From a virus (lineage: Duplodnaviria > Caudoviricetes): DNA of 64,000 nucleotides. The stretch lies in the IMG/VR virus record IMGVR_UViG_3300031760_000002, positions 96,001 to 160,000 of that record; one strand, given 5' to 3'. Shown here piece after piece: positions 6,382 to 55,733 of the stretch. Every line of letters begins with the position of its first letter. Position 1 is the first letter of the stretch. A program made the position numbers and the translations under genes. The notes below the pieces were generated by a model. The model did no database searches and was not told the DNA's origin. It saw nothing but the letters and a program-made list of their open reading frames with translations.

Positions 6382-7176
6382 TTACTGTCCGAATTGCCGT
6401 CTGGCGACAGGCGCCGAATACGGCGCATCCCATGGTTTTGCAGGGGCGGGCTCCGGCTTCGGAGCCGCCTTGTAGTCGGCGACGGCCTTCCTCGACTCGC
6501 GCATCCTCTGGTTCCAGAGAACGGCATTTGGATCAAGCTCCTTGCCATCCTTCCTGTAGAACTCGCCGGTTTCTCCGTTGAACAGGTGGTTGTAGAACAT
6601 CGGAAGGCTTCTGCGCCCGTCCATCAGCTCCCTGTACATATCCCTCGGCGCGGCATTCGCAGCCGCCGGTGCCGACCGCCTCTTCAGGCCTCCGCCGTCG
6701 TAAAGGTAGAAGTCTCGTTCCTCGTTGGAAAGGCCGTTTCCATGTTCGTTGGCGGCAAGGGCCGTATCAATATGGCTGTTGAACTGGTCCAACCTCTCTC
6801 GAAGCTTAAGCCGCTCCTCCGGCGTGGCGGCTCCGGCCAGCTGGGCCTTCATCCAATTTTCGCCGGCGGACCTGAGCCCTTCAGCGTAACTGGCCCTCTC
6901 CTTACGTTCCCTCGCGTGGCTTCCGCTAAAAATGCTTCCGAGCGCCCTGGTCAGGAGCCATCCCTGCCTGTTGCCGTCTGCAAAACCGTCGTTAGGAAGA
7001 TACCTTGTAATGTCGCCAAGATATTTGTTGTTCTTCGCGAAGTCGAGGGCCATGTTGCGCTGGCCATTCCTGAAGTCGTCGTCTATGGCTATCTTGCACA
7101 GCACGGACGCGTCGTCGATCGACGCCCCAAGCTCCGCGCACTTCGAGAAAAACCCGTTTACATACCCCTGTGTCAT
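6382..7176 (-). CDS. GFxxKCAE-leader protein (putative capsid cargo)
   Basis: N-terminus MTQGYVNGFFSKCAELG...CKIA. Confidence 0.7.
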   Translation of the reverse strand: MTQGYVNGFFSKCAELGASIDDASVLCKIAIDDDFRNGQRNMALDFAKNNKYLGDITRYLPNDGFADGNRQGWLLTRALGSIFSGSHARERKERASYAEGLRSAGENWMKAQLAGAATPEERLKLRERLDQFNSHIDTALAANEHGNGLSNEERDFYLYDGGGLKRRSAPAAANAAPRDMYRELMDGRRSLPMFYNHLFNGETGEFYRKDGKELDPNAVLWNQRMRESRKAVADYKAAPKPEPAPAKPWDAPYSAPVARRQFGQ

Positions 7177-10062: not shown

Positions 10063-10380
10063 TTAAGCCTTGCCAACGGTTACGACCTGTCCCATCGGGT
10101 CGAGCCCCGCGTAGTCCCTGACCTTGTTGCTGAGATGGGCCGCTCCGAGGCCAGCTAGGGACCCGATACCGACCCCTGCGAGTGCTCCGGCTCCGCCCTT
10201 TGCGGTGCCACCGGCAACTCCACCGGCGTATGCGCCAAGAAGGGCGCCAAGGATCAGCTTGAGCTTCCTTCTCCTTGCGACGTAGTCTATGTCGGCCGAC
10301 TCCTGGGCCAGTTTAAGCATGCGCTTGCATTCGGCTATGCGAACCGCATGCGCGATCTTGGTAAGATTTTCCTGTTTCAT
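10063..10380 (-). CDS. small Gly-zipper membrane-type protein
   Basis: TKIA/LKLA motifs followed by two GxxxG hydrophobic helices. Confidence 0.6.
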   Translation of the reverse strand: MKQENLTKIAHAVRIAECKRMLKLAQESADIDYVARRRKLKLILGALLGAYAGGVAGGTAKGGAGALAGVGIGSLAGLGAAHLSNKVRDYAGLDPMGQVVTVGKA

Positions 10381-10916
10381 TATGCCATTCCCTTCAAAAC
10401 TGCGTCGAGCTTCGCATCTACCTCGGTAAGTTTGGCCGGGTCTATCGCGGCTGGCTGGGCAGGAGCCGACGGAGCCTGTGCCACGCCGCTAGGCTGCTGG
10501 ATGCCGAGAACGCTCTTGAACACCTCTGCAAACTGCTTGAACAGCTTGCTGAGCTGCGTAGGCGTTATCTTCATGTACGGCTCTCCGGACGGAGACACGT
10601 CGCCGCCGGCGGCAGGATCGTCCATCGGAGGTGGCGGCATTCCACCCATCGGGTCTCCTCCGGGAGGAGGCATTCCGCCCATGGCAGCCGGGTCTCCGGG
10701 AGGCATTCCACCCATGGCGGCTGGATCGCCAGGAGGCATTCCGCCCATTGCGGCCGGGTCTCCAGGGGGCATTCCACCCATGGCGGCGGGATCGCCTCCC
10801 GGGGGAGGACCGCCGGCACCGGGATCGCCGCCAGCCATCGACGGATCCATAGGAACGAACTGCGCCTGCTTCTTCAGAAGAAGCTGTAGCTGCTTGTATT
10901 TGTTGTAGTCGAACAT
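10380..10916 (-). CDS. Pro/Gly/Met-rich repeat protein
   Basis: KKQA at residue ~15, then (GDPAAMGGMPP)n. Confidence 0.65.
   Translation of the reverse strand: MFDYNKYKQLQLLLKKQAQFVPMDPSMAGGDPGAGGPPPGGDPAAMGGMPPGDPAAMGGMPPGDPAAMGGMPPGDPAAMGGMPPPGGDPMGGMPPPPMDDPAAGGDVSPSGEPYMKITPTQLSKLFKQFAEVFKSVLGIQQPSGVAQAPSAPAQPAAIDPAKLTEVDAKLDAVLKGMA
10636..10797 (-). repeat. 33-bp coding tandem repeat (GDPAAMGGMPP x4 plus a partial copy)
   Basis: visible in the translation, with synonymous divergence in the DNA. Confidence 0.85.
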
Positions 10917-13347: not shown

Positions 13348-13830
13348 CTACTTGCTTCTCTTCTTCTTGTCGTCTTCCTTGTCGCCTCTGTCTTTCTTCT
13401 TAGACGCGACAGCCGCAGTGCCGGCAGCAGCTCCGCCTATACCAAGAGCGGCAAGAAGCGACGCCTTAGCAGCCGGAGAAAGGGCGGACGTAGCCTGTCC
13501 TCCAGACAGAGCAGCAGCCGTACCTGCTCCTGCCGCTCCGGTAATCCCGAGCGTTGCCAGTATCCGGTCCCAGCGAAGCCCACCCTTTCCAAGCTTGGAC
13601 ACTTCGTTAAGACCGGAACCGCCAGACGACGCATAGTGCCCGCCCTTCCCGACTGCTGCCGGAACGGCCGTGACGCTATGGATCATCTTTCCCGGTTTGC
13701 GGTAAAATTTTCCAATGGCGCTCAGTACTCTTTCGAGTCCTGCCCTCTTCTGCATCTGCTCGAGTACGGCATTGCCGTCGACACCGTATTCGGCACACTT
13801 TTCGATGAACCCCTTTTCGTATCTGGTCAT
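13348..13830 (-). CDS. GFxxKCAE-leader protein with two hydrophobic helices
   Basis: MTRYEKGFIEKCAEYG...QKRA; AGGAG RBS. Confidence 0.7.
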   Translation of the reverse strand: MTRYEKGFIEKCAEYGVDGNAVLEQMQKRAGLERVLSAIGKFYRKPGKMIHSVTAVPAAVGKGGHYASSGGSGLNEVSKLGKGGLRWDRILATLGITGAAGAGTAAALSGGQATSALSPAAKASLLAALGIGGAAAGTAAVASKKKDRGDKEDDKKKRSK

Positions 13831-13979: not shown

Positions 13980-15839
13980 CTAGTAATGAAACTCCTCGTT
14001 CTTATGTCCGGGAGACCCCCACTGTCCGAGCGTTACGCCCTTGGCTACGGCAGGATACGGATTGATCCCCTTCGAATTGGACGTCGCGCCACGCTGTACG
14101 TCCTCGACAAGACGCTTTCCGATGTACGTCGTTCCAAGCCTTCCCATCCAGTCGTCGGTCTGGCCGGTCGTGTATACGACAGACTGCATCTCGGGGCGGA
14201 CGCCAACGGGCTTGTCGTTGTAGAGAACCGCCGGAACCTTGAACCTGTTCAGCTCGTCCGCGACCCGCTTGGTGATCCTGGTGCCTATCGTGTAGTGAAG
14301 GGCCGGCTGCTCCAGGTATTTCCCTATCGCCTTGCTGGGAGGGGCCTGCACCGAGTTCGTACGGGGCTTGTACCCCCACGCCCATCTGGCGTACGAGACG
14401 TTGTCCCCGGGCAGCATCTGGCCCTCGGCATCCTGGTCCTCCACGACGACGTTGTTTATCAGGGCTTTCGCAACGGCCTCCACGTTGCGCCTGTTCGTCT
14501 TGTACCCGGAATCCCTGTATGCCTTCGTGAACCTTTCCGTGAAATAACGGCGGCCTTCGCCGATCCCTTTCAGCCGGACCGCGTCGGCCGGGGAGACAAC
14601 GCCATCGGACAACTGGTCCCCGGCCTCGACCTCCTGGCCTTCCTTGACGATGAGGCCGTATCCGGCCGGAACGTAATGCCTCTGGTCGTTCACGTAGACG
14701 TACTCGCCTCCCTGCGGCGCCTTCTCGATCTTCTCCACGCGACCGTCTATCTCCGACACGGTTGCCCTGTCCTTGTACACCTCCGGAACCGTGGCCATCC
14801 TCTTCAGCATGTCGAACCCGGAATACCCTACGCCTTGCTGCTTCTTGCCAGAATGCTTCATGTTGAGGCCGCCTTGGGCGATCCTTTCCGCCAATGCAGA
14901 AGCGGAATTCAATCCAAGATTGTATCCGATCTCCGGGAACTTTCCGTTCTCGCGTATTCCGGCGCAATGGGCGCACACGCCGTTCTTGGCGTTGCATGTG
15001 GTAGGAGACCTTACGGATATCATGTCCTGCCCGGACGACTTGAGATCCGCCAGAACCGACTTTGTTATGACCGTACCGGCATCGTACCCGCCGGCCGGCA
15101 TGGCCAGAACCGCGCCTATGTTGTCGTTGTCGTCGGTCTTAACGGGAAGTCCGTTCGGAGTTCCGCAATCGTCCTCCGTGACCACCTGCTCTATGGCGGC
15201 CGAGTTGAACAGCTTGCCCAGCTCGCCGGCCCTTGCCGTCGCGAACTTGGTTGATATGATGGAGGCCCTCGCGCCGTAAAGGCTGGCCCAAAACTCCGCC
15301 GGAGACAGCCCGTCCGCATAACTGTGACGGATAAAAAGAGGTATGGTCCTGCCGGATGCGTCCTGGTAGACGCCCGGCGTATTGATCATGGCTGACAGCT
15401 GGTCCTTGTTGCCCCTCGCGTTCGACTTTACCTGGAGTGCGAAGCTGTTGTTCGCCTTCAGGGCCGCGTTGTACGCGTCCAGCTTCGTCTTGTCGTAGAC
15501 CTTCCGGTACACGTCGGACAGCACTTCCTTCTTCTCGTCGTCCGTCAGCGTCTTGTCGCCGTAGATCCTGTTTTCGGCGTCGTCCAGGTTTTTATATATT
15601 GTCGACCTGTCGAACGGCGGCGCAACGTCGGAAAGACGGATCGTCGTGCCTTCCTCGAACGCCGCCTTGTTGCCGGCCCGCATCAGCTTTGACGCTATTT
15701 CGCCGTACTTGTCCGGATCGTGAGCTATGATGTCCGTCAACAGCGCGTCCAGCTCGTCCGCACCAAGCGTACGATTGTAGTCCCGGTACCTCTCCGGGAG
15801 TATCTCGTTTATTATGAGCTGTCCTACCGTTGTAGCCAT
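13980..15839 (-). CDS. rpoC: multisubunit RNA polymerase, beta' C-terminal half (bridge helix, trigger loop, Zn site)
   Basis: TTVGQLIINEILP, SNARGN, GLSPAEFW...GAR...TARAGEL, EDDCGT, VRSPTTC...GVCAHCAG, AERIAQGGLNMKHSG. Confidence 0.92.
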   Translation of the reverse strand: MATTVGQLIINEILPERYRDYNRTLGADELDALLTDIIAHDPDKYGEIASKLMRAGNKAAFEEGTTIRLSDVAPPFDRSTIYKNLDDAENRIYGDKTLTDDEKKEVLSDVYRKVYDKTKLDAYNAALKANNSFALQVKSNARGNKDQLSAMINTPGVYQDASGRTIPLFIRHSYADGLSPAEFWASLYGARASIISTKFATARAGELGKLFNSAAIEQVVTEDDCGTPNGLPVKTDDNDNIGAVLAMPAGGYDAGTVITKSVLADLKSSGQDMISVRSPTTCNAKNGVCAHCAGIRENGKFPEIGYNLGLNSASALAERIAQGGLNMKHSGKKQQGVGYSGFDMLKRMATVPEVYKDRATVSEIDGRVEKIEKAPQGGEYVYVNDQRHYVPAGYGLIVKEGQEVEAGDQLSDGVVSPADAVRLKGIGEGRRYFTERFTKAYRDSGYKTNRRNVEAVAKALINNVVVEDQDAEGQMLPGDNVSYARWAWGYKPRTNSVQAPPSKAIGKYLEQPALHYTIGTRITKRVADELNRFKVPAVLYNDKPVGVRPEMQSVVYTTGQTDDWMGRLGTTYIGKRLVEDVQRGATSNSKGINPYPAVAKGVTLGQWGSPGHKNEEFHY

Positions 15840-18800
15840 TATTTTCGAAGTATCTCTATCGGGTCGTTTGGACCGATCTCACCCCTGGCATAGGCCGCCT
15901 TTGCCTCCGAGACCGTATTATACACCCGGACCGGCTTTTCCGTCATCGGCCTCGTCAAGGCATACAGGCCGAAAACCTGCTCCTTGCTCGGCGTGTGCCT
16001 TGGCGAACGAAGATCCGTCAACGACGTTAGGTTCTTGGACGGAAGCATCTTCTCGTACGCCTGCCTGACCGCCTTCTCCGACGACGGCACGTGCGCGTTC
16101 ATCTGGTCTCCGTCGAAATCCGCGGTGAACGACTGCGTGATAAGCGGGCATACCTTGATCGTGCTTCCGTCCGTGAGGAATGGCCTGAACGCCGTGAAGT
16201 TGAACTTGTGCCACGTCGGCGCACGGTCAAGGATGACCGGGCGCTTCTCCATCTCCTTGACCAGAATGCTCCTGGCCGTGGCATCCCTGTCCGCGATCAT
16301 CTTGGTCGATACGGACGCCGGATACCCGTTTCTTGACAGCTCGCGCATGATGTACGGCTTGTACATCGGCCATGCCATGTCCTCCGGTATGCCGCACTGG
16401 TCCATGTCCAGGTTCGGATCCGGCGTTATGACTCCGCGGGACACGCCTCCAACGGCCTTCGATATGACCTTGTTCTGGTACATGCCGAACTTTGGCCTGG
16501 ACCCTATCACCTGCCTTATCGCGCCTTTGACGCCTTTCGCGGCGTTCTCCGGCGTTATCGGCTGTCCAAGCCCGTACGCGGCCTTCACCGACTCGTAGAT
16601 GTTCAGCCTTTCGTCAGAAACGCCATCGTCGGACAGATCCTTCCTGAGCTCCCTGAAATGGTTCGCGTTCTCTATGATGTCCTTGTACAGCTTGTTCATG
16701 TCGGAAGTAAGGGCGACGTCGCCCATCTTCGACACGGGCCTGAACATCGGAGGTATGACCGGAACCTTCGATATCATCCAATCCTTGGGATGCAGCCCCT
16801 GGTTCTTCATCGCCGTCAAGTATCTATAAACCTTGACCGCATCGTCCCTCTTCTGGCCGCGGAACGTGGTTATGCCCCTCGACGCCTCCTCGATCCTCTT
16901 GTCGACGTCTATCTTGGACAGCGCGTCCTTCAAAGCCTGGCCGCCGGTCTTGCCGTCGAGCTTCTCACGACCGGACAGTATGTCCTCCATCCTTGACGTG
17001 GTCAGGCCGAGCACCCTCCTGACAGGCTCCTCCATTATCGGGTTCGGAACAGGTTCCGGAAGCTCTATCATGGACCATTGGTTTCCGGCCATACCGCCGG
17101 TCTTGCCAAGATCGAACAAGCCTCCCTTTACCGGCTCGAAGTCGGAATCAACCATGTCGGAGGACGATATGACACGTCCTCCGGCCATCTTCTCGACATC
17201 CTTGTCGGTCTGCGGCATTATCCGGGTTATCGACCCTTTTTCAGTGACATTTATGCCGCCAGCCCTCAACGTGTTCAGGAACTTGTTGTATATGAACGGC
17301 ACATCGGGCTCCGGCGTCGGAAGCCCCAGCTGCAGCGCCCTCCAATAATCGTCGTTCCTGGTGCCGCGTATGATCTGGGTGTCTTTTATCACCTCCGGCA
17401 CGTTGTGCGCAAGCATTCCCCACAAGTCCATGCCCGAGCTCTTCTTGGCGCCCTCAAAGCCTCCCTTCGCCGGCTGTTCGTCCTGCGTATAGGCGCCGTC
17501 TGCCCCTCGGGCCGACGCCTTCTTCTCGGACAGGTGGTGGAACGCATGCATGTAGATCCATCCGTCGCCGACGTTCTTGATTGTCTTCCCGGACACGGGA
17601 TCGAACACGTCTGCTGACTCCTTGACACCGGCTTTGTCCATCTGCGCCTTCGTCCACCTGTACCACCCTTCCGGCGGAGGAAGCTGGGGGATCCGTATCT
17701 GCTTTCCGGTGGCCTTCGCCACCTTTCCGAGGGAAATCTCCATGAGCTGGTTTGGCGCCGTCCTCGACAGGAATCCCATCGGGTTGACGAGGACGTCGTA
17801 CGGTTCGTTCGTGACGGCGTCCCTCGGCATCTTGTCCATCGGTATGATGGTGCCGACCACCCCCTTCAGACCGGAGAACGGAGACAGCTTGTCGCCCACC
17901 CTAACGGGGGGCTGCGCATGCACGTTCACCTTCGCTCCAGACGACGTCTTGACAGCGTCGACGACCGTGCCCTCGTAGTCATGCTCCCAGGTCTCCGACC
18001 TGTCGGTATAAGAATTGCGAAGCGCCTTGGACAGCTTTCCAAGCGCCTTGTCGGACGATGTGAGTACCTTTGGCCCGAGCGACAACACGATAGGATCGCC
18101 CCTGTGCAGCACGGTCCCCGGCTTGACGATTCCGTTTTCGTCCAAGGTTGCTATCTGGTCCTTGGTGAACTTTGACGGGAACGCTGATATGTACCTGTTC
18201 CTGCCGAGCTGCACTCCGTTCCTGGCCTCGTGGTCGAAACTGTACAGCCTGTCCGTGGCGAGCTTCTTCGCCGCGTCCTCGCTGATCGTCCACGCGTCCT
18301 CGTAGCTCATGCCGTTCCACGGAAGTATGGCGGCCCTGAGGTTTTGGCCCATATTCAGTGCCCCGGTCTTCGCGTCCGTGTAGTTGGAATGCGCTATCAT
18401 GTCGCCGGGCTTCACGCTTTGCCCCTCCTTGACGGACGGGAAATAGCTTATTGCGGACAGCCTGTTGAACGGTACGTTCTTGGTAAGCTCGACCTTGACG
18501 GTCTTGCCGTCGTCGCCCTTGATCGTAACCGTATCGTCGTCAACCTTCGTGACAACTCCGGAAACGTCGGACTTTAGCGTACCGATTTTCCTGCCGTAGT
18601 ATTCGGACCACGTCGTCTTTCCGTCAGGCATCAGCGAGTCGACCAACGGAACCTCTCCGTTCTTCTGCGGAAGGTACTGCGACCAGAACTTCGACCCGTA
18701 GAACTGCCTCGTGGACTGGACTCCGGTCGGCATGATGTTCATGTTCGTGTTCGAGGTTATCATATGGCCGTACGACGGAACGGTGTACCGCACCTCGCTT

Positions 18801-20209
18801 CGCTTCACCCTCTGCGGTATGCCGTCCTTCATCGCAATGACGTACGGCTTTGTCATGTCCTGCCCCGGAAAGGCCACAAGCCCGTCCGACGCAGTCGCTA
18901 TGTCGACGTATGTAAGCTTCCCGGTTCTGTTGTCTATGAACTCGCCGTACAGCTTGTTGTCCTTGCCAAGGAACGTGTTGTAAGCGGCACGGACGTCTAC
19001 ACCCACTTTTTCCGACTCGGGACCCGAGTTCATGTCGACGAACCCCAAGTAGTCCCCCTGGACGTCGCGCGCCTCCATCGTGACCGCCTCCGGAGACCCT
19101 ATGCCTCCCAGTCCGAACTTGGATATCCTGGACATCTGCTCCAACGTGGAAAGCGGGTTCGCCTCCTCGCCGGGCATGGCGAGCCCAGATCCGTTTATGA
19201 TCGTATCGACCCACGGGTTAAGGGCGTTCCTCTGGATGGATTTAAGATTTCCGTTCCTCCTGGCCTTGTACAGAAGCGTATTGGCCAGGCGTCCGGCGTT
19301 CTTCTCGATGCGTTCCTTGAAATAGTCCTCGACGCCGTAGAACTTGGAAAACCTGGGGCTGTCCCTGTTGTCGGCCTTCTCATCGCCCCTGGAGACGTTC
19401 AGAAGCTTCTGCGAGGCCCTGAGGAGGAGCTCCGGCGTAACATGGTCGACGCCACGGAGGCCCATGGTCCTCTCGACGACCTCCGGATCCACCTCGTATC
19501 CGGCGATGGCGTCGCGAACGAACTGGATCTTGTCATCCTGCGTGGCGGCCGGATTCGACTTGTACCCGGCCATCCTGGAATAAAGCTTGTTCCACGCCTG
19601 AGGGTCCGCCTTTGCGGAGTTTGCCGCGGCAACGTCCGCGCCCCAGTATTTGACAATGCTCTTGTCGTCTACCCCAAGCCCGCGCAAAACCTGGTACAGC
19701 GGTATCTGCCCCTGTCCGGTCTGCAGCGACATGACGCCGGTCTCCGGGTTCAGCCCGAAATGGAACGCGTGCCCTGTGCCCGGCCTGATGTTGAACTGCG
19801 CCTCGTATTCGCCGTTGGACTTCCGCCTTGCATAGACGCCAGGACGAAGCCTTGACTGCGAAATGACCGTGTACTCGGACCCGTTGTTTATAATCGTTCC
19901 GCGGTCGGTCCAGTACGGAACCTGCATGACGGAATCCTTGCGCTGGTCCAGCACCTTCCCGGTCTTCTTGTCGGTGAGCCTCCAGGTGCCGACCAGGTTT
20001 GTCCTTAGATTCCTGTTCCTCAGGATGGCGTCCTTCTGCTGCTTCAGCGTGAACTCCTGCGGACCGTCGTATGCGATGTCCACAAGCTCCAGCCTGTAGT
20101 TGTCGTCCTCGACTGGAAAACGCTTCTGCATCGCGGAAAGAACATTGTCGTAAATGTTCCTTCTGGCCGATTTTGCATCGTCGAACGCCCTGAGACCGTC
20201 TGGAATCAT
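15839..20209 (-). CDS. rpoB: multisubunit RNA polymerase, beta fused to the N-terminal catalytic half of beta'
   Basis: beta motifs GTIINNGSEY..ISQ..RPG, NPL...RISKFGLGG, GQNL..AILPWNG.SYEDA, GDKL...GLKGVV, NPMG..SR; beta' motifs VPVIPP.FRP, DRAPTWH, TADFDGDQM. Confidence 0.93.
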   Translation of the reverse strand: MIPDGLRAFDDAKSARRNIYDNVLSAMQKRFPVEDDNYRLELVDIAYDGPQEFTLKQQKDAILRNRNLRTNLVGTWRLTDKKTGKVLDQRKDSVMQVPYWTDRGTIINNGSEYTVISQSRLRPGVYARRKSNGEYEAQFNIRPGTGHAFHFGLNPETGVMSLQTGQGQIPLYQVLRGLGVDDKSIVKYWGADVAAANSAKADPQAWNKLYSRMAGYKSNPAATQDDKIQFVRDAIAGYEVDPEVVERTMGLRGVDHVTPELLLRASQKLLNVSRGDEKADNRDSPRFSKFYGVEDYFKERIEKNAGRLANTLLYKARRNGNLKSIQRNALNPWVDTIINGSGLAMPGEEANPLSTLEQMSRISKFGLGGIGSPEAVTMEARDVQGDYLGFVDMNSGPESEKVGVDVRAAYNTFLGKDNKLYGEFIDNRTGKLTYVDIATASDGLVAFPGQDMTKPYVIAMKDGIPQRVKRSEVRYTVPSYGHMITSNTNMNIMPTGVQSTRQFYGSKFWSQYLPQKNGEVPLVDSLMPDGKTTWSEYYGRKIGTLKSDVSGVVTKVDDDTVTIKGDDGKTVKVELTKNVPFNRLSAISYFPSVKEGQSVKPGDMIAHSNYTDAKTGALNMGQNLRAAILPWNGMSYEDAWTISEDAAKKLATDRLYSFDHEARNGVQLGRNRYISAFPSKFTKDQIATLDENGIVKPGTVLHRGDPIVLSLGPKVLTSSDKALGKLSKALRNSYTDRSETWEHDYEGTVVDAVKTSSGAKVNVHAQPPVRVGDKLSPFSGLKGVVGTIIPMDKMPRDAVTNEPYDVLVNPMGFLSRTAPNQLMEISLGKVAKATGKQIRIPQLPPPEGWYRWTKAQMDKAGVKESADVFDPVSGKTIKNVGDGWIYMHAFHHLSEKKASARGADGAYTQDEQPAKGGFEGAKKSSGMDLWGMLAHNVPEVIKDTQIIRGTRNDDYWRALQLGLPTPEPDVPFIYNKFLNTLRAGGINVTEKGSITRIMPQTDKDVEKMAGGRVISSSDMVDSDFEPVKGGLFDLGKTGGMAGNQWSMIELPEPVPNPIMEEPVRRVLGLTTSRMEDILSGREKLDGKTGGQALKDALSKIDVDKRIEEASRGITTFRGQKRDDAVKVYRYLTAMKNQGLHPKDWMISKVPVIPPMFRPVSKMGDVALTSDMNKLYKDIIENANHFRELRKDLSDDGVSDERLNIYESVKAAYGLGQPITPENAAKGVKGAIRQVIGSRPKFGMYQNKVISKAVGGVSRGVITPDPNLDMDQCGIPEDMAWPMYKPYIMRELSRNGYPASVSTKMIADRDATARSILVKEMEKRPVILDRAPTWHKFNFTAFRPFLTDGSTIKVCPLITQSFTADFDGDQMNAHVPSSEKAVRQAYEKMLPSKNLTSLTDLRSPRHTPSKEQVFGLYALTRPMTEKPVRVYNTVSEAKAAYARGEIGPNDPIEILRK

Positions 20210-20937
20210 TACATGTTCCTCTGGTAGGATCCCGTCTGGTAGTTCCAGCCATACCTAGGCATGGCCTCCATATACTGTCTTTTCTCGGCGTAGCTTCCTG
20301 GCGCGGCCTTTGCATCCGGGTTGAACTGCTGCTGCTGTCTATAATCGTACAGCTGGCCTCGGAGATAATTGCCGCGTTCGGCCGGAGAAAGCCTGTCCCA
20401 GTCGCTCCTGCCCATGTACGCCTCGAGATTGTTGAAATTGGCATCGTTGTACGCTGCCCGCATTCCCGCCCTGGTAAGGACCGTCTTGCCGACCGGAAGT
20501 CCCGTTGCGGCTTGAAGACCGAACCTGCCGGCCCCGTATACCGCCCTTCCGAACCGTGTCGCGTTCAATGCATTTTTGGCGGCGATCGCATTTTTTCCGA
20601 CCCTGGTCGCCGCCAACGCGCCCTTGGTTCCGGCCAGCGCACTCCTTATCGCCGTTCCGCCTATTCCGAAAGACAGCAGATCGGCTATGCCGCTTCCTAT
20701 GCCAAGGCCAAGATTGCCGAGGCCGGACCATATATGCCCGTTTGCAAGAGACTTTATGCCATCGCCTATAGACAACGCAGAACCGAGTATCGGGGTTGCG
20801 TACATTGCGGTCTGGCCGAGTGCGCCTCCAAGACTCTTTGCTGCCGGAAGAACGGTATCGGCCTCCTTTCGGAGACCGGCCGTCTTCACGATGTAAGAGT
20901 CTATCTTTCTTTCAAGCGCGCATGTATTCACCGTCAA
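20209..20937 (-). CDS. hypothetical virion protein (paralog A)
   Basis: VKTAG/RKEAD at the N-terminus, amphipathic Gly-rich helices. Confidence 0.6.
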   Translation of the reverse strand: MTVNTCALERKIDSYIVKTAGLRKEADTVLPAAKSLGGALGQTAMYATPILGSALSIGDGIKSLANGHIWSGLGNLGLGIGSGIADLLSFGIGGTAIRSALAGTKGALAATRVGKNAIAAKNALNATRFGRAVYGAGRFGLQAATGLPVGKTVLTRAGMRAAYNDANFNNLEAYMGRSDWDRLSPAERGNYLRGQLYDYRQQQQFNPDAKAAPGSYAEKRQYMEAMPRYGWNYQTGSYQRNM

Positions 20938-30326: not shown

Positions 30327-33278
30327 CTAGACTGAGATTGTTTCGGAGTTCGCCGGCCTGTACTCCGTCCTGAACGTCTGTCCGACCCTGGAGTCCGAGA
30401 TCGTCTTGTCCGAGACCCCGCTGCATACGACGACGTTCTGGAAGTACGCCGAGGAGGTCGTCGTTCCGGTTGGGTTCAGATACACGTTTTTGACACCAGG
30501 CTCCATCTTGATCCACCTACAGTACGACTTTGTAGCGGATGATGTTCCGAACGCGTTGGAGGAGCATTCGCCCATGAACGTGTTGGCGTAACAGCTGCTG
30601 CCGAATGTGTTGGAGTAACAGCTGCTGCCGAACGTGTTGTAGTTGCAGTCGCTGCCGAACGTGTTGGAGGAGCAGTAGCTCCCGAACGTGTTGGAGGAGC
30701 AGTAGCCCCCGAACGTGTTGTAGTTGCAGCCGCTCCCGAACGTGTTGGAGGAGCAGTTGTTATCGAACGTGTTGGAGGAGCAGTCGCTGCCGAACGTGTT
30801 GGAGTAGCATTCGCTGCCGAACGTGTTGGATAAGCAGTTGTTATCGAACGTGTTGGAGTAGCATTCGCTGCCGAACGTGTTGGATGAGCAGCTGCCGCCT
30901 AACGTGTTGGATGAGCAGTTGCTACCGAACGTGTTGGATGAGCAGATGCCGCCTAACGTGTTGGATGAGCAGTCGCTTCCGAACGTGTTGTAGGAGCAGT
31001 TGCCGCCTAACGTGTTGGAGTAACAATTGATCTCGAACGTGTTATAGGAGCAGGAGCTATCGAACGTGCTGTAGGAGCAGGAGCCCCCGAACGTGTTTGA
31101 GGAGCAGGAGCTCCCGAACGTGTTGTAGTTGCAATAGCTACCGAACGTGTTGGAGGAGCAGTTGCTACCGAACGTGTTGTAGTTGCAATAGCTACCGAAC
31201 GTGTTGGAGGAGCAGTCGCTGCCGAACGTGTTGGAGTAGCAGTCGCTGCCGAACGTGTTGGAGTAGCAGTTGTTATCGAACGTGTTGGAGTTGCAGCCGC
31301 TCCCGATAAACACTATGCCGTTCAACTTCGGCTTAACAGAATAGTGCCAAGGTCCAATCTTGTTTCCGTACACAGTACTCGATGCGGTCAACGACATGTC
31401 GACCGCATTGCCGGACACGATGTCGGAAAACGTGTAGTGCCACTGGCTCGTTGATGCGTCGACGATCAGCACCGTGCCGTTGACCGATATGTTCGAGCCC
31501 TTGTAGGCGAAGCATTTACCTGTTTCCGAATACGAGAACGAACTTACGAGCGATGAAACGTCACTTATCTTCGTGCTCGTGACATTTGTTATGGCCCATC
31601 GCTTGAACTGGATCCCCTTGAAGTCGTACGGGCAATCGTTGCCGAACTCGTCTATCAGCCTGTAGACGACGCCTTTTCCGTTCGTGGAATCCGCCCATGC
31701 GAACCTGTTCGTGTCGTTGTCCAGGCAATACTTCAGCTCCCAAGCCTCGAGATTGCAGCCGTCGAAGTACGTGTCTCCGGCATGCCGAATCGCATACGCG
31801 TTCTCGTTGAGCTTGTTGGTCGAGTCGGCTCTGACGATGATGTCGAAAGGATGGTTTGCAGACTGTGTGTCTGCCTGAACGGTTGTGGCCACATAGTCCG
31901 TAATTCGATACTGCTGCCCAGGAACTAGCGTCCCACCGTCGCGCAACGCCTTTAGCTCAGACCAGGTCTTCTCGACGACCGCCTGTACAAACGACTTGTC
32001 GAGGTTCGCAGACGGAATCTTCCCGTTTCCGTCCACGATTACCGTATCTCTGTACCTGAACGTATTAGACGTGTTAAGGTTCCCAAGCGTGCTCTCGCCA
32101 AGCTGAATGCTGTTCGTACCGGCTGTATCAACGCCGGCCCTCTTACCTATCGCGATAGACCCAGCCGCAAGCGACTTGGCGAATGTTCCAATAGCTATAG
32201 AACTCTCGCCACCGGAGTTTGTTGTATTGCTGTTGTCACCCGCGGAAATCGCTATGGACTTAATCCCGGCGGCCCGGGCTTTGTTGCCTATGCCTACAGA
32301 AAACGGGGAATTCGCCGTGGCATCATTTCCGGCCGCAATTGAGCTACCGCTCTTCCATCGGTTGAACTCGGCCTCCGAGGTGATGTACCCGGCGTCGTTC
32401 GTGAACGCGGACACGTTCGTAGGAACCGTCGGAATGTCGCTCTTGAGCGCGTAGTCACCGGCAGGCTGAAGCGGTTTGTCCGACTGCGAACCAAGTTTGT
32501 ATGAAGAGCTAAGTTTAGTTCTAGTGGCTGAAAATTCAACGCCAGGAGCGCTGTCCATGCCCTGTGCGACTATGGAAGTTCGTGTATCCGTTGGATAATA
32601 GAACTCCGCCAATGAGACACTGGGGGCGGATGAAGGATAGAACTGATAAAAAGTTTTACCAGTCGGGTCAGTTGTAAATCTAACCTTCGCCTCAGTTGTT
32701 ACCTCGCCATTTGCCCTGACAATCCACTCACTGAATTCAGCTATCTCCGTCAGCGTCGCATCGGCCTTGGTGGCTAGGTTGTCCAGGACCGTCTGATCGA
32801 TCTTGGCGGCGGTGACGGCGCCGTCTGGAATCGATATCTTCGCGTCGTCGTCGATTGAGATCCCCTGCCCTGGCGTGAGCTTCTTCTGGTACGCGGCCTG
32901 CGCCTCATCCTTCGTGAGGTACATGTCCATGGACGGGCCTAGCGGATCCCATACGGGGTCGTCGTTGCTGGTGTGGCCGGCGCATGCCACGTTCATGCCG
33001 TCCTCGACGACATTGTACACGTCGCCGACTTCGACTCCGTCCTTCGGCAGGTCTTCGTACGTAGGTACGGACCCCTTCCACCTGAGTACCTTCCCGAGCC
33101 CTGACAGGGCCTCGTCTATCGCGGACCTTATGCCGTCCGACGTAACCGGGTTCGACGACCCGGAGACGGGCTCATCGTCGAACGTAAGCAGGTCCTGCTT
33201 GGCGGACAGCAGCCCGTCGATCTCCTCGATCGAGTAGATCTTCTTTGCAAAGTCGACGAGTCCGAGCTTCTTGGGCAT
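30327..33278 (-). CDS. tail fibre/receptor-binding protein with YadA-head-like repeats and Cys-NTFG beta-solenoid repeats
   Basis: VPTNVSAFTNDAGY linker, SIAIG repeats, ~28 x CxxNTFGxx. Confidence 0.7.
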   Translation of the reverse strand: MPKKLGLVDFAKKIYSIEEIDGLLSAKQDLLTFDDEPVSGSSNPVTSDGIRSAIDEALSGLGKVLRWKGSVPTYEDLPKDGVEVGDVYNVVEDGMNVACAGHTSNDDPVWDPLGPSMDMYLTKDEAQAAYQKKLTPGQGISIDDDAKISIPDGAVTAAKIDQTVLDNLATKADATLTEIAEFSEWIVRANGEVTTEAKVRFTTDPTGKTFYQFYPSSAPSVSLAEFYYPTDTRTSIVAQGMDSAPGVEFSATRTKLSSSYKLGSQSDKPLQPAGDYALKSDIPTVPTNVSAFTNDAGYITSEAEFNRWKSGSSIAAGNDATANSPFSVGIGNKARAAGIKSIAISAGDNSNTTNSGGESSIAIGTFAKSLAAGSIAIGKRAGVDTAGTNSIQLGESTLGNLNTSNTFRYRDTVIVDGNGKIPSANLDKSFVQAVVEKTWSELKALRDGGTLVPGQQYRITDYVATTVQADTQSANHPFDIIVRADSTNKLNENAYAIRHAGDTYFDGCNLEAWELKYCLDNDTNRFAWADSTNGKGVVYRLIDEFGNDCPYDFKGIQFKRWAITNVTSTKISDVSSLVSSFSYSETGKCFAYKGSNISVNGTVLIVDASTSQWHYTFSDIVSGNAVDMSLTASSTVYGNKIGPWHYSVKPKLNGIVFIGSGCNSNTFDNNCYSNTFGSDCYSNTFGSDCSSNTFGSYCNYNTFGSNCSSNTFGSYCNYNTFGSSCSSNTFGGSCSYSTFDSSCSYNTFEINCYSNTLGGNCSYNTFGSDCSSNTLGGICSSNTFGSNCSSNTLGGSCSSNTFGSECYSNTFDNNCLSNTFGSECYSNTFGSDCSSNTFDNNCSSNTFGSGCNYNTFGGYCSSNTFGSYCSSNTFGSDCNYNTFGSSCYSNTFGSSCYANTFMGECSSNAFGTSSATKSYCRWIKMEPGVKNVYLNPTGTTTSSAYFQNVVVCSGVSDKTISDSRVGQTFRTEYRPANSETISV
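30547..31304 (-). repeat. 27-bp coding tandem repeat, ~28 copies (C-x-x-N-T-F-G-x-x)
   Basis: core cgaacgtgttg recurs every 27 nt on the + strand. Confidence 0.92.
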
Positions 33279-34120: not shown

Positions 34121-34588
34121 CTAGTAGGCTGTCCCCGCCGGAGGCGTTATCCTGGCCGGGGCTTCCGTTTTCGTTCCAACCGGAAGCGCAGGTTTTCCGT
34201 TTCCGGCGAGCTGGCTGGCCTCAGGCGCACCGGAAAGCTTTCCTCCGGCGTACCCCCCGACGCCACCCACAATACGTCCGAGCCCGCCGCCTAGAAGTGC
34301 GCCTCCAATAGCGCCAACCGGCCCAAGCACGGCCCCGCCAAGCGCCCCCGTGGCCGCTCCGATCCCGGTACCCCACTTGCGGCCCGTGCTCTTGTAGCTC
34401 TCCATCGACCTGTTTGGATCTTTCCTGTTAAACAGGTGGGAAATAAGGCCATATGCGCCTATGCTGCCAAGTCCCCCAAGCAGAAATCGGCCTAAGCCGG
34501 CCTGTTTCCTCATCAGCTGGACGGCCGTGTCTTCATCGACGCCGTACTCGGCGCACTTCGTGAGAAATCCATGTTCGTATGGTGTCAT
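34121..34588 (-). CDS. GFxxKCAE-leader protein with glycine zipper
   Basis: MTPYEHGFLTKCAEYG...RKQA; long GxxxG run. Confidence 0.75.
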   Translation of the reverse strand: MTPYEHGFLTKCAEYGVDEDTAVQLMRKQAGLGRFLLGGLGSIGAYGLISHLFNRKDPNRSMESYKSTGRKWGTGIGAATGALGGAVLGPVGAIGGALLGGGLGRIVGGVGGYAGGKLSGAPEASQLAGNGKPALPVGTKTEAPARITPPAGTAY

Positions 34589-36406: not shown

Positions 36407-37114
36407 TTATTGTATGTAACGTCTTCCGCCCGGCGTGGCGAACGGGTTGCCGGAAGGCTGCTGAGGCGCCGGCGGCTGAAACTGCTGTCCTCGCATCTGA
36501 TCTCCGGCCGACGTTCCACGGATAGGCTGCTGCGGCTGCTGAACCTGGTTGGTGTTCACTACGCCACTTTGTCCACGAACGGGCTGCACGTTCGGATTCC
36601 AGTTCGGGGCCGTATACTTGGCAGCCTCGGTCGTCTGCCACTGGGTGTTTCCACGGGCGAACCTCTGGTTCGGATCCACGTCCTGGATGCCCTTGACGGT
36701 CTCGACCCTGCCGCCGGTATTGAGCCTGTTCACGCCAAGCGTACGGGCGTTCGCGCGATTCTTCTCCTCCTGCATCCTCTGCATGACTTCCTGCGCGTTC
36801 TCGTCGATGCTTCGGCCATACTCCTCCTCCTGCCAGTCCTTGGAGTGGAAGTTCCTGTTGAACCACCTGCCGAGAGCGGTACCGGCCTTTCCGGAATCCT
36901 TCCTGGCCATGAGCTGCTCGAACCTGGCCCTGTCGCCTTCGCTCATGTTCTGGGTATACTGGCCCATGATGTCCTTCTGCGTACCGGTGATGGACTCGTT
37001 CCTATGGCCGTCCGAATCCCAGAAATACGCCCTCTTCATTAGAAAATGCGCAACTTCCTCCGGAATGCCGGATTCGGCGCACTTGGTGAGAAATCCCTGT
37101 TCGTATGGTGTCAT
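36407..37114 (-). CDS. GFxxKCAE-leader protein, Gln/Pro-rich tail
   Basis: MTPYEQGFLTKCAESG...MKRA; AAGGAG RBS. Confidence 0.75.
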   Translation of the reverse strand: MTPYEQGFLTKCAESGIPEEVAHFLMKRAYFWDSDGHRNESITGTQKDIMGQYTQNMSEGDRARFEQLMARKDSGKAGTALGRWFNRNFHSKDWQEEEYGRSIDENAQEVMQRMQEEKNRANARTLGVNRLNTGGRVETVKGIQDVDPNQRFARGNTQWQTTEAAKYTAPNWNPNVQPVRGQSGVVNTNQVQQPQQPIRGTSAGDQMRGQQFQPPAPQQPSGNPFATPGGRRYIQ

Positions 37115-37129: not shown

Positions 37130-37357
37130 CTACGAAATCCCAAATCTAGCCTTCGCCTCTTCCCAATCGCTGTCCGATTTGTTCGCGAAACACCAGGTAT
37201 CGTCCACTATCCTGGACATGAACGCCACCGGTTCTCCCCTGTTGCTGCGAATGACCACGGTCCTTGCCTTGTTCGTGTCAAGCAACGGCCTGTCGAACAC
37301 GTTGTCCGACAGGACCGTAACATTGCCACGGGCGTAGTCTGAACTTTGCTCCGACAT
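37130..37357 (-). CDS. small hypothetical protein
   Basis: 75 aa, coupled to the upstream stop. Confidence 0.55.
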   Translation of the reverse strand: MSEQSSDYARGNVTVLSDNVFDRPLLDTNKARTVVIRSNRGEPVAFMSRIVDDTWCFANKSDSDWEEAKARFGIS

Positions 37358-38022
37358 TAATTAACACCCGGTGTCCTCAGGCTCTGCTGCAGCTTCTTGC
37401 GCCTGAGCGCCTCGACCTTATTGACCGCAGCCTCGAGATTAGGATCATTTCCTGGCTGCCCGGGCATTACCAGGCCAGACCTATGAATTACGGTTCGCTG
37501 GGCGGTCCTCGGTGCAGGGCTTGTAACGGTCCTTGGAGCCGGGCTTGTAACGGTCCTTGGAGCCGGGCTTGTAACGGTTCTTGGTGCAGGGCTTGTAACG
37601 GTCCTGGGCGCAGCGGGCCTTGGCTGTTGAGCCGGCCTCGCCGGATATGGCCTAGGCTGCGGAGCTGGCCTTGGTTGCGGAGCCGGTCTAGCCGGGGCTG
37701 GCCTCGGCTGTGGAGCCGGTCTAGCCGGGGCTGGCCTCGGCTGTGGAGCCGGTCTAGCCGGGGCTGGCCTCGGCTGTGGAGCCGGTTGTGGCGTAGGTTG
37801 AGAGCCACTTGCAGAACCGGTCGGAACGCCTGGAGCCGGCAGATCGTCGCCAGGATGCCAGTTCGGATCCATCAGCCTTGCCTTGTTCTGCTGCCATTGG
37901 TCATGGGTCATTGACTGGCCGCCTATCTGCAGGTCGGACATCTTCAAAAGACCGAAAGCCACTTCCGGGTGAATCCCGAATGCGGCGCACTTGGTTAGAA
38001 ATCCCTGTTCGTATGGTGTCAT
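37357..38022 (-). CDS. GFxxKCA-leader protein with Pro-rich repeats
   Basis: MTPYEQGFLTKCAAFG...LKMS; (PAPQPRPAPAR)x3, (PRTVTSPA)x4. Confidence 0.72.
   Translation of the reverse strand: MTPYEQGFLTKCAAFGIHPEVAFGLLKMSDLQIGGQSMTHDQWQQNKARLMDPNWHPGDDLPAPGVPTGSASGSQPTPQPAPQPRPAPARPAPQPRPAPARPAPQPRPAPARPAPQPRPAPQPRPYPARPAQQPRPAAPRTVTSPAPRTVTSPAPRTVTSPAPRTVTSPAPRTAQRTVIHRSGLVMPGQPGNDPNLEAAVNKVEALRRKKLQQSLRTPGVN
37505..37790 (-). repeat. two coding tandem repeats (33 bp x3, 24 bp x4)
   Basis: near-identical DNA units ggagccggtctagccggggctggcctcggctgt and gggcttgtaacggtccttggagcc. Confidence 0.85.
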
Positions 38023-38952: not shown

Positions 38953-39174
38953 TCAAAGGATGAAAAACAGCCAAGACAGCATAAGAAATCCCTCCAGCCA
39001 CAAAATGGACCTCATCATCGACTCGACGACGAAGTCGTACCAGTCGTACCGGACGCCCGGTTTCCTGGGAGGATCCCTGGAAACGGCCAGTACGACGAAC
39101 GACGCCGCCATCACCGACGCGGATACGGACAGCCCTCCGTAAAGCAAATACCGTATGAAATCCTGTATTGACAT
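38953..39174 (-). CDS. small two-TM membrane protein
   Basis: start reassigned to MSIQDFIRY; two hydrophobic helices. Confidence 0.5.
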   Translation of the reverse strand: MSIQDFIRYLLYGGLSVSASVMAASFVVLAVSRDPPRKPGVRYDWYDFVVESMMRSILWLEGFLMLSWLFFIL

Positions 39175-41837
39175 TAACCGCCCTGCTGCATCTGCTGGAT
39201 CATCATTTGCTGTCCTTGCGACGACAGCTGCTGCCTCTGGTCTTGAAGCTGCCCCTTCACCATGGCCCACAGCGTCGGGTTGGTCTGCTTGATTGACGCG
39301 AGGGTCTGCCTTGTATGGGCCGGATTGTTCTCGGCGATCAGCTGCTGCGCGATCTGCTCGGCCTGCTGCGCAACGTCGCCGGGGGTGGCGCCTACCTGGC
39401 CGCCGGGACCGTTCATGCCGCTCCCGCCTCCTCCGCCACCGCCTCCGCCGCCTCCCATGGCGCCGTTGGCCTGCTGGGCCTGGGCGTCCGCCATGGCCTT
39501 CTCCTGCATCTTCTGGACGTCCTGCTGCTCCTTGATGATCCTGCGCTGCTCGTCGAGGTAGTCGATGCCGATCGTCCTGTACGCGGTCTGCTTCGAGATG
39601 TCCTGCCCTGCGGCGGCCTGCATCTGGATGCCCTTCTTCTCGAGGTCGTCGGCGAGCGTGATCGGGGTAAGATGGACTTCGACCGGATCCCACTGCATGT
39701 AGTTGGAGATCTCGTCGGTGATCCACTGCAGGATGTTGTTTATGCCGGAAACGAACGGGTTCCATTCGCGTTCGAACAGCCTGAGCGCAACCGGCGCGGC
39801 CTGCAGCGACAGGGTGCCGGCGAACAGCTCCTGGGGGAATCCAAGCGAGTTCAGGAGCTCCTGGGTCGCCTCCTGGATCGACTCCTTTGGCGCAAGCTGC
39901 TTTGCCTCTCCTCCGATCAGCTCGTACCCGATGGCCCACGGTGCCACTTCGATGGAGGTCATGTTCATACGCTTCTTCTCCACCATGGACGACATGGCGG
40001 CTATGAAGGTCTGCATGGAAATCTGGGTGAGCGGATCCTGGCCTCCCGGCGCGTTTCCCTGCGGGTACAGGATGCGGAACGGCACGATGAAGTCCAACGC
40101 AATCGCTTCGTCGTAACGACGCATGAGCTGGATGTAGTATGCCAGCTTGAAGTAGGGAAGGATCGGCGGGATGCCCCAGCCCTTGATCGGAAGACCGGCG
40201 AAAACGGCGTCCCTGAGATGGTATATCTTGTCCGGATCGAACTCGAAGAGGTGCTCCTCCCCGTCCCCCGTGTGGTCGTCGTTAAGGCAGGTCTCTATGA
40301 ATCCCCAGGACACGTTGTTGATGTAGAACGGGTCTCCCTTCCTGACCCTTTCGACGAACTTGGGATCCATCTTGTAGTAGTACTTCAGCTCTCCGGTGAT
40401 GTCGTTCACCTTCAGCTTTATCCTTTTAGGATCCCAACGGTTTATCCTTATCTTGGAAGTATCCCTTGAACGCCTGTCCACGCGCTTGAACGGAACCTTG
40501 CCATGCTTGCACTTCGGGCATTCGCAAATGAATTCGCCTTTGGTGGCCGAGAACTCGTATTTTATCTTGGATATATGCACCTGTGCACCGCAGCCGGGGC
40601 ACTGCAGGTACCTCTCGAACGGAAGATACACGGAGACGAAGGAGTTTCCGTAGCAGTTTCCCGTCACGAGCCCTCCTTCGAGGGCGAACGTATGCGTTGC
40701 CGGTTCTACGCAGCAGAACACCTCCTCCGTACGGTACCTGCTTCCGATCCTGGTCGGCGAGGTGGCTATCCTGGCCTTCACGGTCTTGGACGTCCTGTAC
40801 AGGTCCTTCTGGTCCTGGCACAGGAAATCGTCCTCGAGAAGGCTTGAAATGCGGAACGGCATGTAGTACCGTTCGTAGTCGGACCATATCCTGCGCTTCA
40901 CGATCGACTTTGGCACAAGCCCCAGCTGTATCATGCCCTCCCGCACCGCGGAAAGCTTCTTCCTGTCGTTGTGGGTAAGGAAGAACGAATTGGCCTTCGG
41001 CTGGAAGAATCCCGATACCGAGGCCATTCCGCCGAAGAATCCGTACCAATACGACCGGGACGCGTTCTTTGGCACGTCCTTCATGGAGGCGTCGACCTCC
41101 AGACCGTATGCGGACTTGTACTCCTCAAGGAACCTGGATTCGTAATAAAGCGGCTTCTCCCTGAGGCCGAAGACTATCCCGTGCAGCCCTCCGGCCACGT
41201 AGTCCCGGTTCTTTTCCGGCCTTGGAACCATGACGACCGGTATCCGGCTGCTCTTCTTGAGCTCGTCCGTCCTGCACTGGACGTAGGCGTGCTCCTCCTT
41301 GCCGTTGCACTTCCTGTACCACCTGTGGTCGGCCGTGACCCTGCACTCCGTGCCGTTCCCGAAATGGACGTCGACCGTCTTCTGCCTGCCGAACGACTTG
41401 AACGACGCGACATGCCACTTTCCGTCTATCGACAGCACCTTGGCCCTCTTTCCGGCCAGGTCCCTTATCTTGAACACGCCCTTGTCCGTGACAACCCTTG
41501 TGCTTCCGCCGAAGCAGAAATAGTCCTTGCCTATGTCCTGCAGCCTCTGGATGATGTTGATGTCCTTGTCGAACACCTTCTCGTACTTCTCGCGTACGTC
41601 GTCGGCCACGTCGTTGATCTCGACATCGGTGAGAAAGTACGATACGACCCTGTTTATGACGGCCATGAACGGCGGTATGGTGAGCATCAGGTACTCGGAC
41701 CACGTGAACGCGTCGTTGATGTTCGTCGGTATGTACGCCGACGCGATGTCCATGAACGGGTTCGGATACTTGTAGGCGTCCGGAAACCTGCCCCCGTCCC
41801 ACGGTGTGCCTGAAAACGCGGATGTATTCTGTGTCAT
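39174..41837 (-). CDS. portal protein with intein and zinc-ribbon insertion
   Basis: spliced extein DIGKDYF|CYGNSFVS, IYHLR...WGIPPI, LGFPQEL; first gene of the morphogenesis operon; start reassigned to MTQNTS because the upstream GTG lies inside a tRNA. Confidence 0.75.
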   Translation of the reverse strand: MTQNTSAFSGTPWDGGRFPDAYKYPNPFMDIASAYIPTNINDAFTWSEYLMLTIPPFMAVINRVVSYFLTDVEINDVADDVREKYEKVFDKDINIIQRLQDIGKDYFCFGGSTRVVTDKGVFKIRDLAGKRAKVLSIDGKWHVASFKSFGRQKTVDVHFGNGTECRVTADHRWYRKCNGKEEHAYVQCRTDELKKSSRIPVVMVPRPEKNRDYVAGGLHGIVFGLREKPLYYESRFLEEYKSAYGLEVDASMKDVPKNASRSYWYGFFGGMASVSGFFQPKANSFFLTHNDRKKLSAVREGMIQLGLVPKSIVKRRIWSDYERYYMPFRISSLLEDDFLCQDQKDLYRTSKTVKARIATSPTRIGSRYRTEEVFCCVEPATHTFALEGGLVTGNCYGNSFVSVYLPFERYLQCPGCGAQVHISKIKYEFSATKGEFICECPKCKHGKVPFKRVDRRSRDTSKIRINRWDPKRIKLKVNDITGELKYYYKMDPKFVERVRKGDPFYINNVSWGFIETCLNDDHTGDGEEHLFEFDPDKIYHLRDAVFAGLPIKGWGIPPILPYFKLAYYIQLMRRYDEAIALDFIVPFRILYPQGNAPGGQDPLTQISMQTFIAAMSSMVEKKRMNMTSIEVAPWAIGYELIGGEAKQLAPKESIQEATQELLNSLGFPQELFAGTLSLQAAPVALRLFEREWNPFVSGINNILQWITDEISNYMQWDPVEVHLTPITLADDLEKKGIQMQAAAGQDISKQTAYRTIGIDYLDEQRRIIKEQQDVQKMQEKAMADAQAQQANGAMGGGGGGGGGGGSGMNGPGGQVGATPGDVAQQAEQIAQQLIAENNPAHTRQTLASIKQTNPTLWAMVKGQLQDQRQQLSSQGQQMMIQQMQQGG
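40656..41516 (-). mobile_element. intein (287 aa) with degenerate LAGLIDADG-like endonuclease region
   Basis: block A CFGGSTRVVT, block B RVTADHRW, C-terminus VFCCVEPATHTFALEGGLVTGN|C. Confidence 0.9.
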
Positions 41838-41850
41838 GTCGCTATGAAGA

Positions 41851-55578: not shown

Positions 55579-55612
55579 GGTTGGCGGTCCTGGTTGGGTG
55601 GAACAGCGCGGG

Positions 55613-55728: not shown

Positions 55729-55733
55729 TGCCG

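Follow-up and report, generated by a model that had tools for sequence, protein, structure and literature searches.

Two adjacent genes on the minus strand of a tailed-phage genome (IMG/VR record IMGVR_UViG_3300031760_000002; 176,839 bp, CheckV grade complete) divide between them the working parts of a bacterial-type multisubunit RNA polymerase (RNAP): the first encodes, in one unbroken reading frame, a beta module followed by the N-terminal part of beta', and the second encodes the rest of beta' as a separate protein. The stretch of DNA analysed here, hereafter the window, comprises 64,000 nucleotides (bases 96001-160000 of that record), and coordinates are those of the window unless the genome is named. 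We consider it fairly probable that the two genes form the catalytic core of a phage-specific, bacterial-type multisubunit RNAP built from two polypeptides; theirs is the only polymerase set in the whole genome. The features that define the two genes are as follows.

15839..20209, minus strand: gene of the fused chain, beta::beta'N (P0001, 1456 aa), identified by its open reading frame (ORF), Pfam domains and a match to gp206 of Salmonella phage Arash.
13980..15839, minus strand: gene of the separate beta'C chain (P0002, 619 aa), identified by Pfam Rpb1_5, matches to beta' chains in the PDB, and AlphaFold2 with Foldseek.
15837..15841, minus strand: TAATG, in which the stop codon of the fused gene (TAA, 15841-15839) and the start codon of the beta'C gene (ATG, 15839-15837) have one base in common.
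17231..20209, minus strand: beta module, P0001 residues 1-993, collinear with E. coli beta 51-1337 and without SI1 and SI2 (BLASTP, alignment).
15842..17230, minus strand: beta' N-terminal module, residues 994-1456, equivalent to about 17-555 of E. coli beta' (alignment, phmmer against the PDB).
19115..19192, minus strand: equivalent of rifampicin cluster I, with substitutions at several contacts (E. coli Q513, F514, D516 and H526; alignment).
18014..18064, minus strand: beta flap-tip helix, where sigma region 4 docks, kept (alignment).
17051..17122, minus strand: site of the deleted beta' N-terminal zinc ribbon, occupied instead by a loop GKTGGMAGNQ (alignment).
16577..16699, minus strand: beta' clamp helices, where sigma region 2 docks, kept (alignment).
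16106..16126, minus strand: catalytic loop TADFDGD, P0001 residues 1362-1368, with its three Asp kept and the Asn of NADFDGD replaced by Thr.
15192..15302, minus strand: bridge helix, P0002 residues 180-216, aligned to Salmonella beta' 769-805.
14964..15167, minus strand: second zinc site, C225, C282, C289 and C292 of P0002, invariant in 39 homologues.
14772..14924, minus strand: trigger loop, P0002 residues 306-356, with Met-Lys-His at its tip and without SI3.

The partition can be followed domain by domain. In P0001, Pfam recognises Rpb2_6 (PF00562) at residues 549-916 (E 9.5e-40), together with Rpb1_2 (E 6.4e-23), Rpb1_1 and, more weakly, Rpb2_3 and Rpb2_2; in P0002 it recognises Rpb1_5 (E 6e-11). 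BLASTP against the Salmonella subunits preserves the order of parts throughout, with P0001 residues 25-988 matching beta 51-1337 collinearly and without the enterobacterial insertions, residues 1082-1420 matching beta' 174-515 collinearly, and P0002 taking up the remainder with residues 3-331 (beta' 572-938) and 388-485 (beta' 1188-1284). In an alignment of 24 bacteria, 24 members of the fused family and two other phage beta' chains, the beta C-terminus ...LRAGGINVTEKGS occupies P0001 residues 981-993 (nt 17231-17269) and is followed directly, with no linker, by ITRIMPQTD, which aligns at about residue 17 of E. coli beta'. The fused chain then stops at about residue 555 of E. coli beta', and the opening MATTVGQ of P0002 aligns to the E. 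coli TTVGR at about 573; the cut falls within a segment at the surface whose length varies. One chain thus holds both double-psi barrels, the DxDGD magnesium loop, the clamp helices and the flap tip. For P0002, beta' chains in the PDB match residues 2-485 in a single stretch (E 2e-41), and its AlphaFold2 model (mean pLDDT 75) finds bacterial beta' through Foldseek (E 1e-27). A preliminary description of this DNA, made from the sequence without database searches, had proposed an unbroken 1456-aa frame with a junction near 17245, followed after a 1-nt overlap by a gene that starts at TTVGQ and supplies the bridge helix and trigger loop; ORF analysis, Pfam, BLASTP and alignment bear out the first part, and the MATTVGQ start and the positions of the two catalytic elements the second.

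Other parts have been kept, altered or lost. The motifs of conserved basic residues in the beta barrel (...EKKASARG...QPAKGG...) are present in P0001, region H of beta' is supplied by P0002, and the alignment shows the C-terminal region of beta as well. P0002 matches the beta' of Actinobacteria and Firmicutes in a single stretch, as befits a trigger loop without SI3. In cellular enzymes the Asn of NADFDGD touches the substrate ribose; across the fused family DxDGD is conserved wherever the motif can be read, and the first position is N, G, T or A. The two positions after the first vary too, as in the NMDHDGD of a pyrophosphatase-bearing group. The N-terminal zinc ribbon (four Cys, E. coli ~66-97) corresponds to some 32 columns that are absent from all aligned members of the family, and the two unfused beta' chains, from Rhizobium phage RHph_Y65 and Vibrio phage Va2, retain it. 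Insensitivity of the enzyme to rifampicin is a probable consequence of the altered pocket. With a beta part of ~990 aa and a beta' total of ~1085 aa, against 1150-1340 and 1150-1400 in bacteria, the chains are reduced, though the earlier wording 'much shorter than cellular subunits' somewhat overstated the difference.

This layout is not peculiar to one genome. A megablast search of the locus against a phage collection gave no match; protein comparison did. The cultured Salmonella phage Arash has the same arrangement in gp206 (1525 aa) and gp216 (606 aa), as do Vibrio phages D69, D148 and D181 (genes 0261 and 0264 in D69); these phages are ~30% identical to P0001 over 95-99% of its length (gp206: 99% coverage, 30% identity). 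Three IMG/VR relatives at 73-82% identity have both ORFs intact. A word-index search returned 2020 matches, on contigs of up to 206 kb among those listed, and PF00562 and PF00623 stand in one chain in 120 of the 120 matches listed. With phmmer, 1.84 billion representatives yielded 2056 matches with E no higher than 1e-30; each of the 150 best clusters (50% identity) has E<1e-198, and those without inteins align across the junction in one stretch. Most chains whose catalytic motif could be placed stop 90-99 aa past it, and beta'C stands alone at 603-630 aa in most of the 120 clusters listed, the longer versions being mostly intein-bearing. The fused layout is shared by environmental phages in their hundreds and by a few phages in culture, and the architectural reading of a beta::beta'N fusion with a separate beta'C is fully supported for the family as a whole. 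The distance from the fused gene to beta'C varies from -1 nt here through ~90 nt in the relative L006 and 1.7 and 2.2 kb in L004 and L005 to 6.6 kb in Arash, and in L095 it exceeds 10 kb, which argues that the cut in beta' is old and that the two genes have been moved apart repeatedly.

Both polymerase genes of the family often contain inteins: L006:9980-16819 carries a LAGLIDADG intein of ~530 aa directly after DFDGD and another insertion in the beta barrel, and beta'C versions of ~996 aa bear inteins too. The genes that lie between the two polymerase genes in L004 and L005 were considered as homing endonucleases that might explain the cut, and Pfam gave this no support. An inorganic pyrophosphatase domain (PF18823) is fused to the N-terminus of the chain in 60 of 268 family members (P0088, P0063 and P0069, the last at L095:10001-15373, are of this type), and 6 of the 268 have LysM with a phage tail lysozyme domain on the chain as well; an inorganic pyrophosphatase gene sought in the genome of the window is absent.

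With respect to bacteria the family stands apart. Over all aligned columns the polymerase of the window is 24-26% identical to its bacterial counterparts, as against 46-90% among bacteria of 9 phyla. In a tree of 50 rows and 1923 columns (IQ-TREE quick search, LG+G4), one branch sets off the 24 family members and another the 24 bacteria, both with SH-aLRT 100, and the fused family appears as one clan outside the bacteria sampled. A pattern scan of 185,579 bacterial species representatives retrieved ordinary rpoC only, 34-41% identical over the best-conserved 227 aa. The nesting within a bacterial clade that the preliminary description had named as a sign of recent capture is not seen in the tree.

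The partner subunits tell a divided story. The 177-kb genome was searched throughout with profiles for alpha (PF01000, PF01193) and omega (PF01192), and none matched at E<=10; the same searches gave matches in 14 of 14 control genomes. Two sets of ORFs were considered as hidden alpha or omega genes and set aside, namely the coupled upstream ORFs of 242 and 304 aa, and gp205 of Arash with D69_0260; all lack a Pfam match and are poorly conserved among close relatives. A sigma factor is present:

genome 77912-78772, minus strand: sigma-70-family gene, 18 kb before the window.

Its product matches Pfam sigma region 3 (E 4.7e-13) and region 4 (E 1.1e-6), with no Pfam match to region 2, and sigmaA and sigmaS chains match its AlphaFold2 model (mean pLDDT 81) over ~255-300 columns, near its full length. 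It is homologous to Arash gp10, further homologues lie on contigs equal in size to those of the polymerase matches, and a sigma-70-family gene co-occurs with the polymerase across the fused family. Because this conserved phage sigma exists, the enzyme is probably not sigma-less. The predicted complex of the sigma protein with a beta' clamp fragment lends weak support to their pairing: it scored 0.58, against 0.00 for the best of three controls, with runs agreeing in at least 43% of contacts and a partner pLDDT of at least 65; 58 of 80 solved complexes attain the mark applied to such scores, as do 2 of 110 mismatched pairs, and scores of 0.60 or less at that mark belong to 7 of the 80 and to both of those mismatched pairs. 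Sigma with clamp is a solved textbook pair, and the score may reflect likeness to that pair only. The preliminary description had found no alpha, omega or sigma gene: for alpha and omega this now extends to the whole genome, and for sigma it holds within the window and fails beyond it. Its suggestion of a possibly alpha-independent enzyme is consistent with the lack of an alpha or omega profile match genome-wide, though the enzyme may use host alpha.

Among known systems the closest are Arash (OQ632216) and the three Vibrio phages, which have the same partition, junction, cut and loss of the zinc ribbon. Arash also has a homologous sigma and neighbouring genes that match virion-detected proteins; it differs in its ~30% identity and in nine opposite-strand genes that separate the polymerase pair, and its fused gene follows the portal gene, whereas the portal homologue of the window lies ~19 kb from the polymerase genes. 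In GenBank gp206 and gp216 are both labelled beta subunits, and in the Arash paper they are beta and beta', with fusion and cut unmentioned (PMC10585845).

Phage beta/beta' polymerases as such are already published. The multisubunit-RNAP-encoding Caudovirales (mReC; Weinheimer & Aylward 2020, PMC7481178), together with the RHph phages (Kleczkowskaviridae) and Va2, are likewise tailed phages with bacterial-like beta and beta' that match cellular profiles and branch outside bacteria. The portion of the mReC table considered gives beta (900-1521 aa) and beta' (899-1391 aa) as separate, uncut ORFs, and the text of the paper mentions fusion only for crAss-like phages (PMC7481178). The filters described there (both subunits at least 800 aa, NADxDGD) would pass over the present pair, with its beta'C of 619 aa and its TADFDGD, and the contigs of the relatives are absent from the supplementary rows considered, which hold unfused pairs only (PMC7481178). 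RHph_Y65 and Va2 each have beta' as a single chain (1127 and 1192 aa, respectively) in which the four-Cys ribbon is retained. RHph_Y65 (L007) and other RHph records gave tblastn matches to the beta' part of the query only, not to beta; their beta is either much more divergent or absent.

The enzymes of the phiKZ/AR9 type are also two-barrel phage polymerases without alpha or omega, with beta' cut after the catalytic barrel and one of two polymerase sets packaged in the virion. They differ from the enzyme of the window in having beta in two to three pieces, no fusion, two paralogous sets and no sigma-70 homologue, and they are far more divergent, as the preliminary description had held: PHROG RNAP beta families reach E 1e-5 to 1e-16 on the window, as against 1e-40 for Pfam Rpb2_6. 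The overviews of jumbo phages considered here cover phiKZ/AR9-type enzymes only.

Cyanobacteria and plastids (gamma/RpoC1 and RpoC2) also divide beta' between the catalytic barrel and the bridge helix. Cyanobacterial gamma (8syi_D, 624 aa), however, ends ~65 residues beyond the end of the phage chain, and TTxG, which begins the second chain here (cut ~555-572), lies in its first part (cut near E. coli 615), so the view that the phage cut falls near but not at the cyanobacterial site stands; cyanobacterial beta, moreover, is not fused to gamma. The RpoB::RpoC proteins of Helicobacter and Wolbachia, and engineered E. coli tethers, join the beta C-terminus to the beta' N-terminus, as here. In these natural and engineered fusions beta' is whole, the zinc ribbon is kept, and alpha and omega are used. 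A beta::beta'N plus beta'C partition was not found described in open-access papers or bioRxiv; the partition is what would be new, and pipelines at present label the fused chain simply 'beta'.

The two-chain, bacterial-type polymerase is real and conserved, and probably active. In the mechanism that we propose for it, the covalent tether between beta and beta' would stand in for the assembly platform of the alpha dimer, and the TAATG overlap would couple translation of the two chains. The phage sigma would dock on the kept clamp helices and flap tip and so confer recognition of phage promoters. Made late and packed in the head, the enzyme would be ejected with the DNA, allowing early transcription independent of the host polymerase. 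Certainty falls from alpha independence, through partnership with the phage sigma, to packaging in the virion. Taken whole, this would be a third lineage of phage multisubunit RNAP, very common in metagenomes, without alpha, omega or zinc ribbon, with its own sigma, carried in the capsid and ejected, driving rifampicin-insensitive early transcription and bearing in some members a pyrophosphatase and a cell-wall hydrolase, a picture that we put forward tentatively.

Packaging, which the preliminary description had suggested from the position of the genes, is argued here by analogy, from the proteome of Arash, from syntenic virion genes and from the LysM and lysozyme domains of relatives. By mass spectrometry of Arash virions, gp206 is the top protein with 3516 spectra, gp216 has 1210, the capsid protein gp226 1333 and sigma gp10 467 (PMC10585845). 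By our own arithmetic the two polymerase chains have 2.3 and 2.0 spectra per residue, a ratio near 1:1. In the window the polymerase genes stand within a minus-strand run of genes that have Arash counterparts detected in virions: by tblastn synteny, the genes 3' of beta'C match gp218, gp220 and gp222, all virion-detected and annotated as structural (PMC10585845). The 'virion operon' setting depends on this synteny with Arash, because 30 ORFs around the polymerase genes, when scanned with PHROG and Pfam, yielded hardly any matches. As for the relatives, a wall-binding and lytic module is hard to explain on a polymerase, which argues that the chain leaves the capsid through the envelope.

Several points weigh against the reading of a capsid-carried, sigma-dependent lineage. 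The Arash 'virion' proteome comprises 116 proteins, ribonucleotide reductase and kinases among them, and its authors raise contamination by abundant cytoplasmic enzymes of the infection stage (PMC10585845). The packaging evidence comes from Arash, whose polymerase is only ~30% identical to that of the window, and neither polymerase chain bears the N-terminal leader of the adjacent presumed head-cargo genes (described below). The tree is a quick one with long branches and bacteria of 9 phyla, and lacks an outgroup from archaea or eukaryotes. Alpha and omega are absent as judged by Pfam profiles, and a very divergent or host-supplied alpha may exist. On the promoter side, k-mer enrichment in 81 upstream intergenic regions returned a ribosome-binding motif only and no phage promoter, and a scan of 10-26 kb for sigma-70 promoter and terminator consensus found no excess over shuffled controls.

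The best-surviving alternative, which we nevertheless judge unlikely, accepts the same two-chain polymerase and keeps it out of the virion: the enzyme would serve middle and late genes, the host polymerase would read the early ones, and the Arash signal would be co-purified enzyme. The many non-structural enzymes in the Arash proteome, and the contamination raised by its authors (PMC10585845), speak for it, as does the missing cargo leader; the Arash spectral counts, taken literally, would moreover imply implausibly high copy numbers per capsid. Against it, the genome has no other polymerase set, and these genes belong to a long series in one direction that includes homologues of virion proteins, an arrangement shared with the virion polymerase genes of N4 and phiKZ. 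The peptidoglycan-binding and lytic fusion of the relatives makes sense mainly for an ejected protein, and sigma too was detected in Arash virions.

Slightly less probable again is a hybrid enzyme, in which the phage chains would assemble on a host alpha dimer, with omega, and would not be alpha-independent. In its favour, the enzyme keeps region H of beta' and the C-terminal region of beta, both involved in bacterial assembly, and beta::beta' fusions of the Helicobacter type still need alpha. With only 24-26% identity to bacterial beta and beta', however, alpha-contacting surfaces are unlikely to fit hosts as varied as Salmonella and Vibrio, and an enzyme carried in the virion would need to bring host alpha along; phiKZ and AR9 polymerases, furthermore, function without alpha (PMC13282480).

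An artefact (contamination, or an error of assembly or frame) or the recent capture of a bacterial rpoBC is scarcely credible as an explanation. We found no evidence supporting either; isolates and independent assemblies in their hundreds show the fusion and the cut again, both ORFs are intact in the relatives at 73-82% identity, this conservation makes the assembly error raised in the preliminary description very unlikely, and the family forms a separate clan on long stems with at most 41% identity to any of the 185,579 bacterial representatives in its most conserved segment.

The immediate neighbours of the polymerase genes are three further features.

20207..20211, minus strand: TAATG, in which the stop codon of the upstream 242-aa ORF and the start codon of the fused gene have one base in common.
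20209..20937, minus strand: upstream coupled ORF of 242 aa, with no assigned function.
13348..13830, minus strand: first gene 3' of beta'C, which bears the N-terminal leader MTxYExGFxxKCAE.

The 242-aa ORF is probably not a polymerase subunit, since it is poorly conserved even among close relatives. The leader, MTPYEQGFLTKCAE.G..., recurs on unrelated genes of the window at 13348-13830, 6382-7176, 34121-34588, 36407-37114 and 37357-38022 (all minus strand) and near the polymerase genes of relatives (at least 9 copies in L006, and also in L005 and L004); it looks like a capsid-targeting or propeptide signal of the kind found on T4 internal proteins. At 10380-10916 (minus strand) lies a small protein consisting mostly of Gly/Pro/Ala/Met repeats (GGMPPGDPAAMGG...), conserved near the polymerase genes of one relative (L005:15072-15638). 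Among 20 large ORFs, the only other genes that Pfam recognises are an HNH endonuclease (54607-55941), a family-8 glycosyltransferase (45963-47840) and a 983-aa protein with a YadA-head repeat (30327-33278), all on the minus strand. The portal homologue (39174-41900, minus strand) has 908 aa against the 579 aa of Arash gp204 and is alignable only over residues 418-792, and so carries large extra N- and C-terminal parts.

Bacterial RNA polymerase is believed to require an alpha dimer as its assembly platform. If the present reading is true, the bacterial enzyme could work in a far smaller form that dispenses with alpha, omega and the zinc ribbon, and this form would be convenient for studies of structure and assembly. 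Direct testing is possible in cultured phages, in Arash on Salmonella Typhimurium and in Vibrio phages D69, D148 and D181. The fixed cut point and the many inteins also make the family a useful one in which to study how large genes are re-partitioned. If enzyme and sigma are both packaged, this would be, to our knowledge, the first sigma-dependent polymerase delivered with phage DNA, and a new solution beside those of N4, phiKZ/AR9, the crAss-like phages and P23-45.

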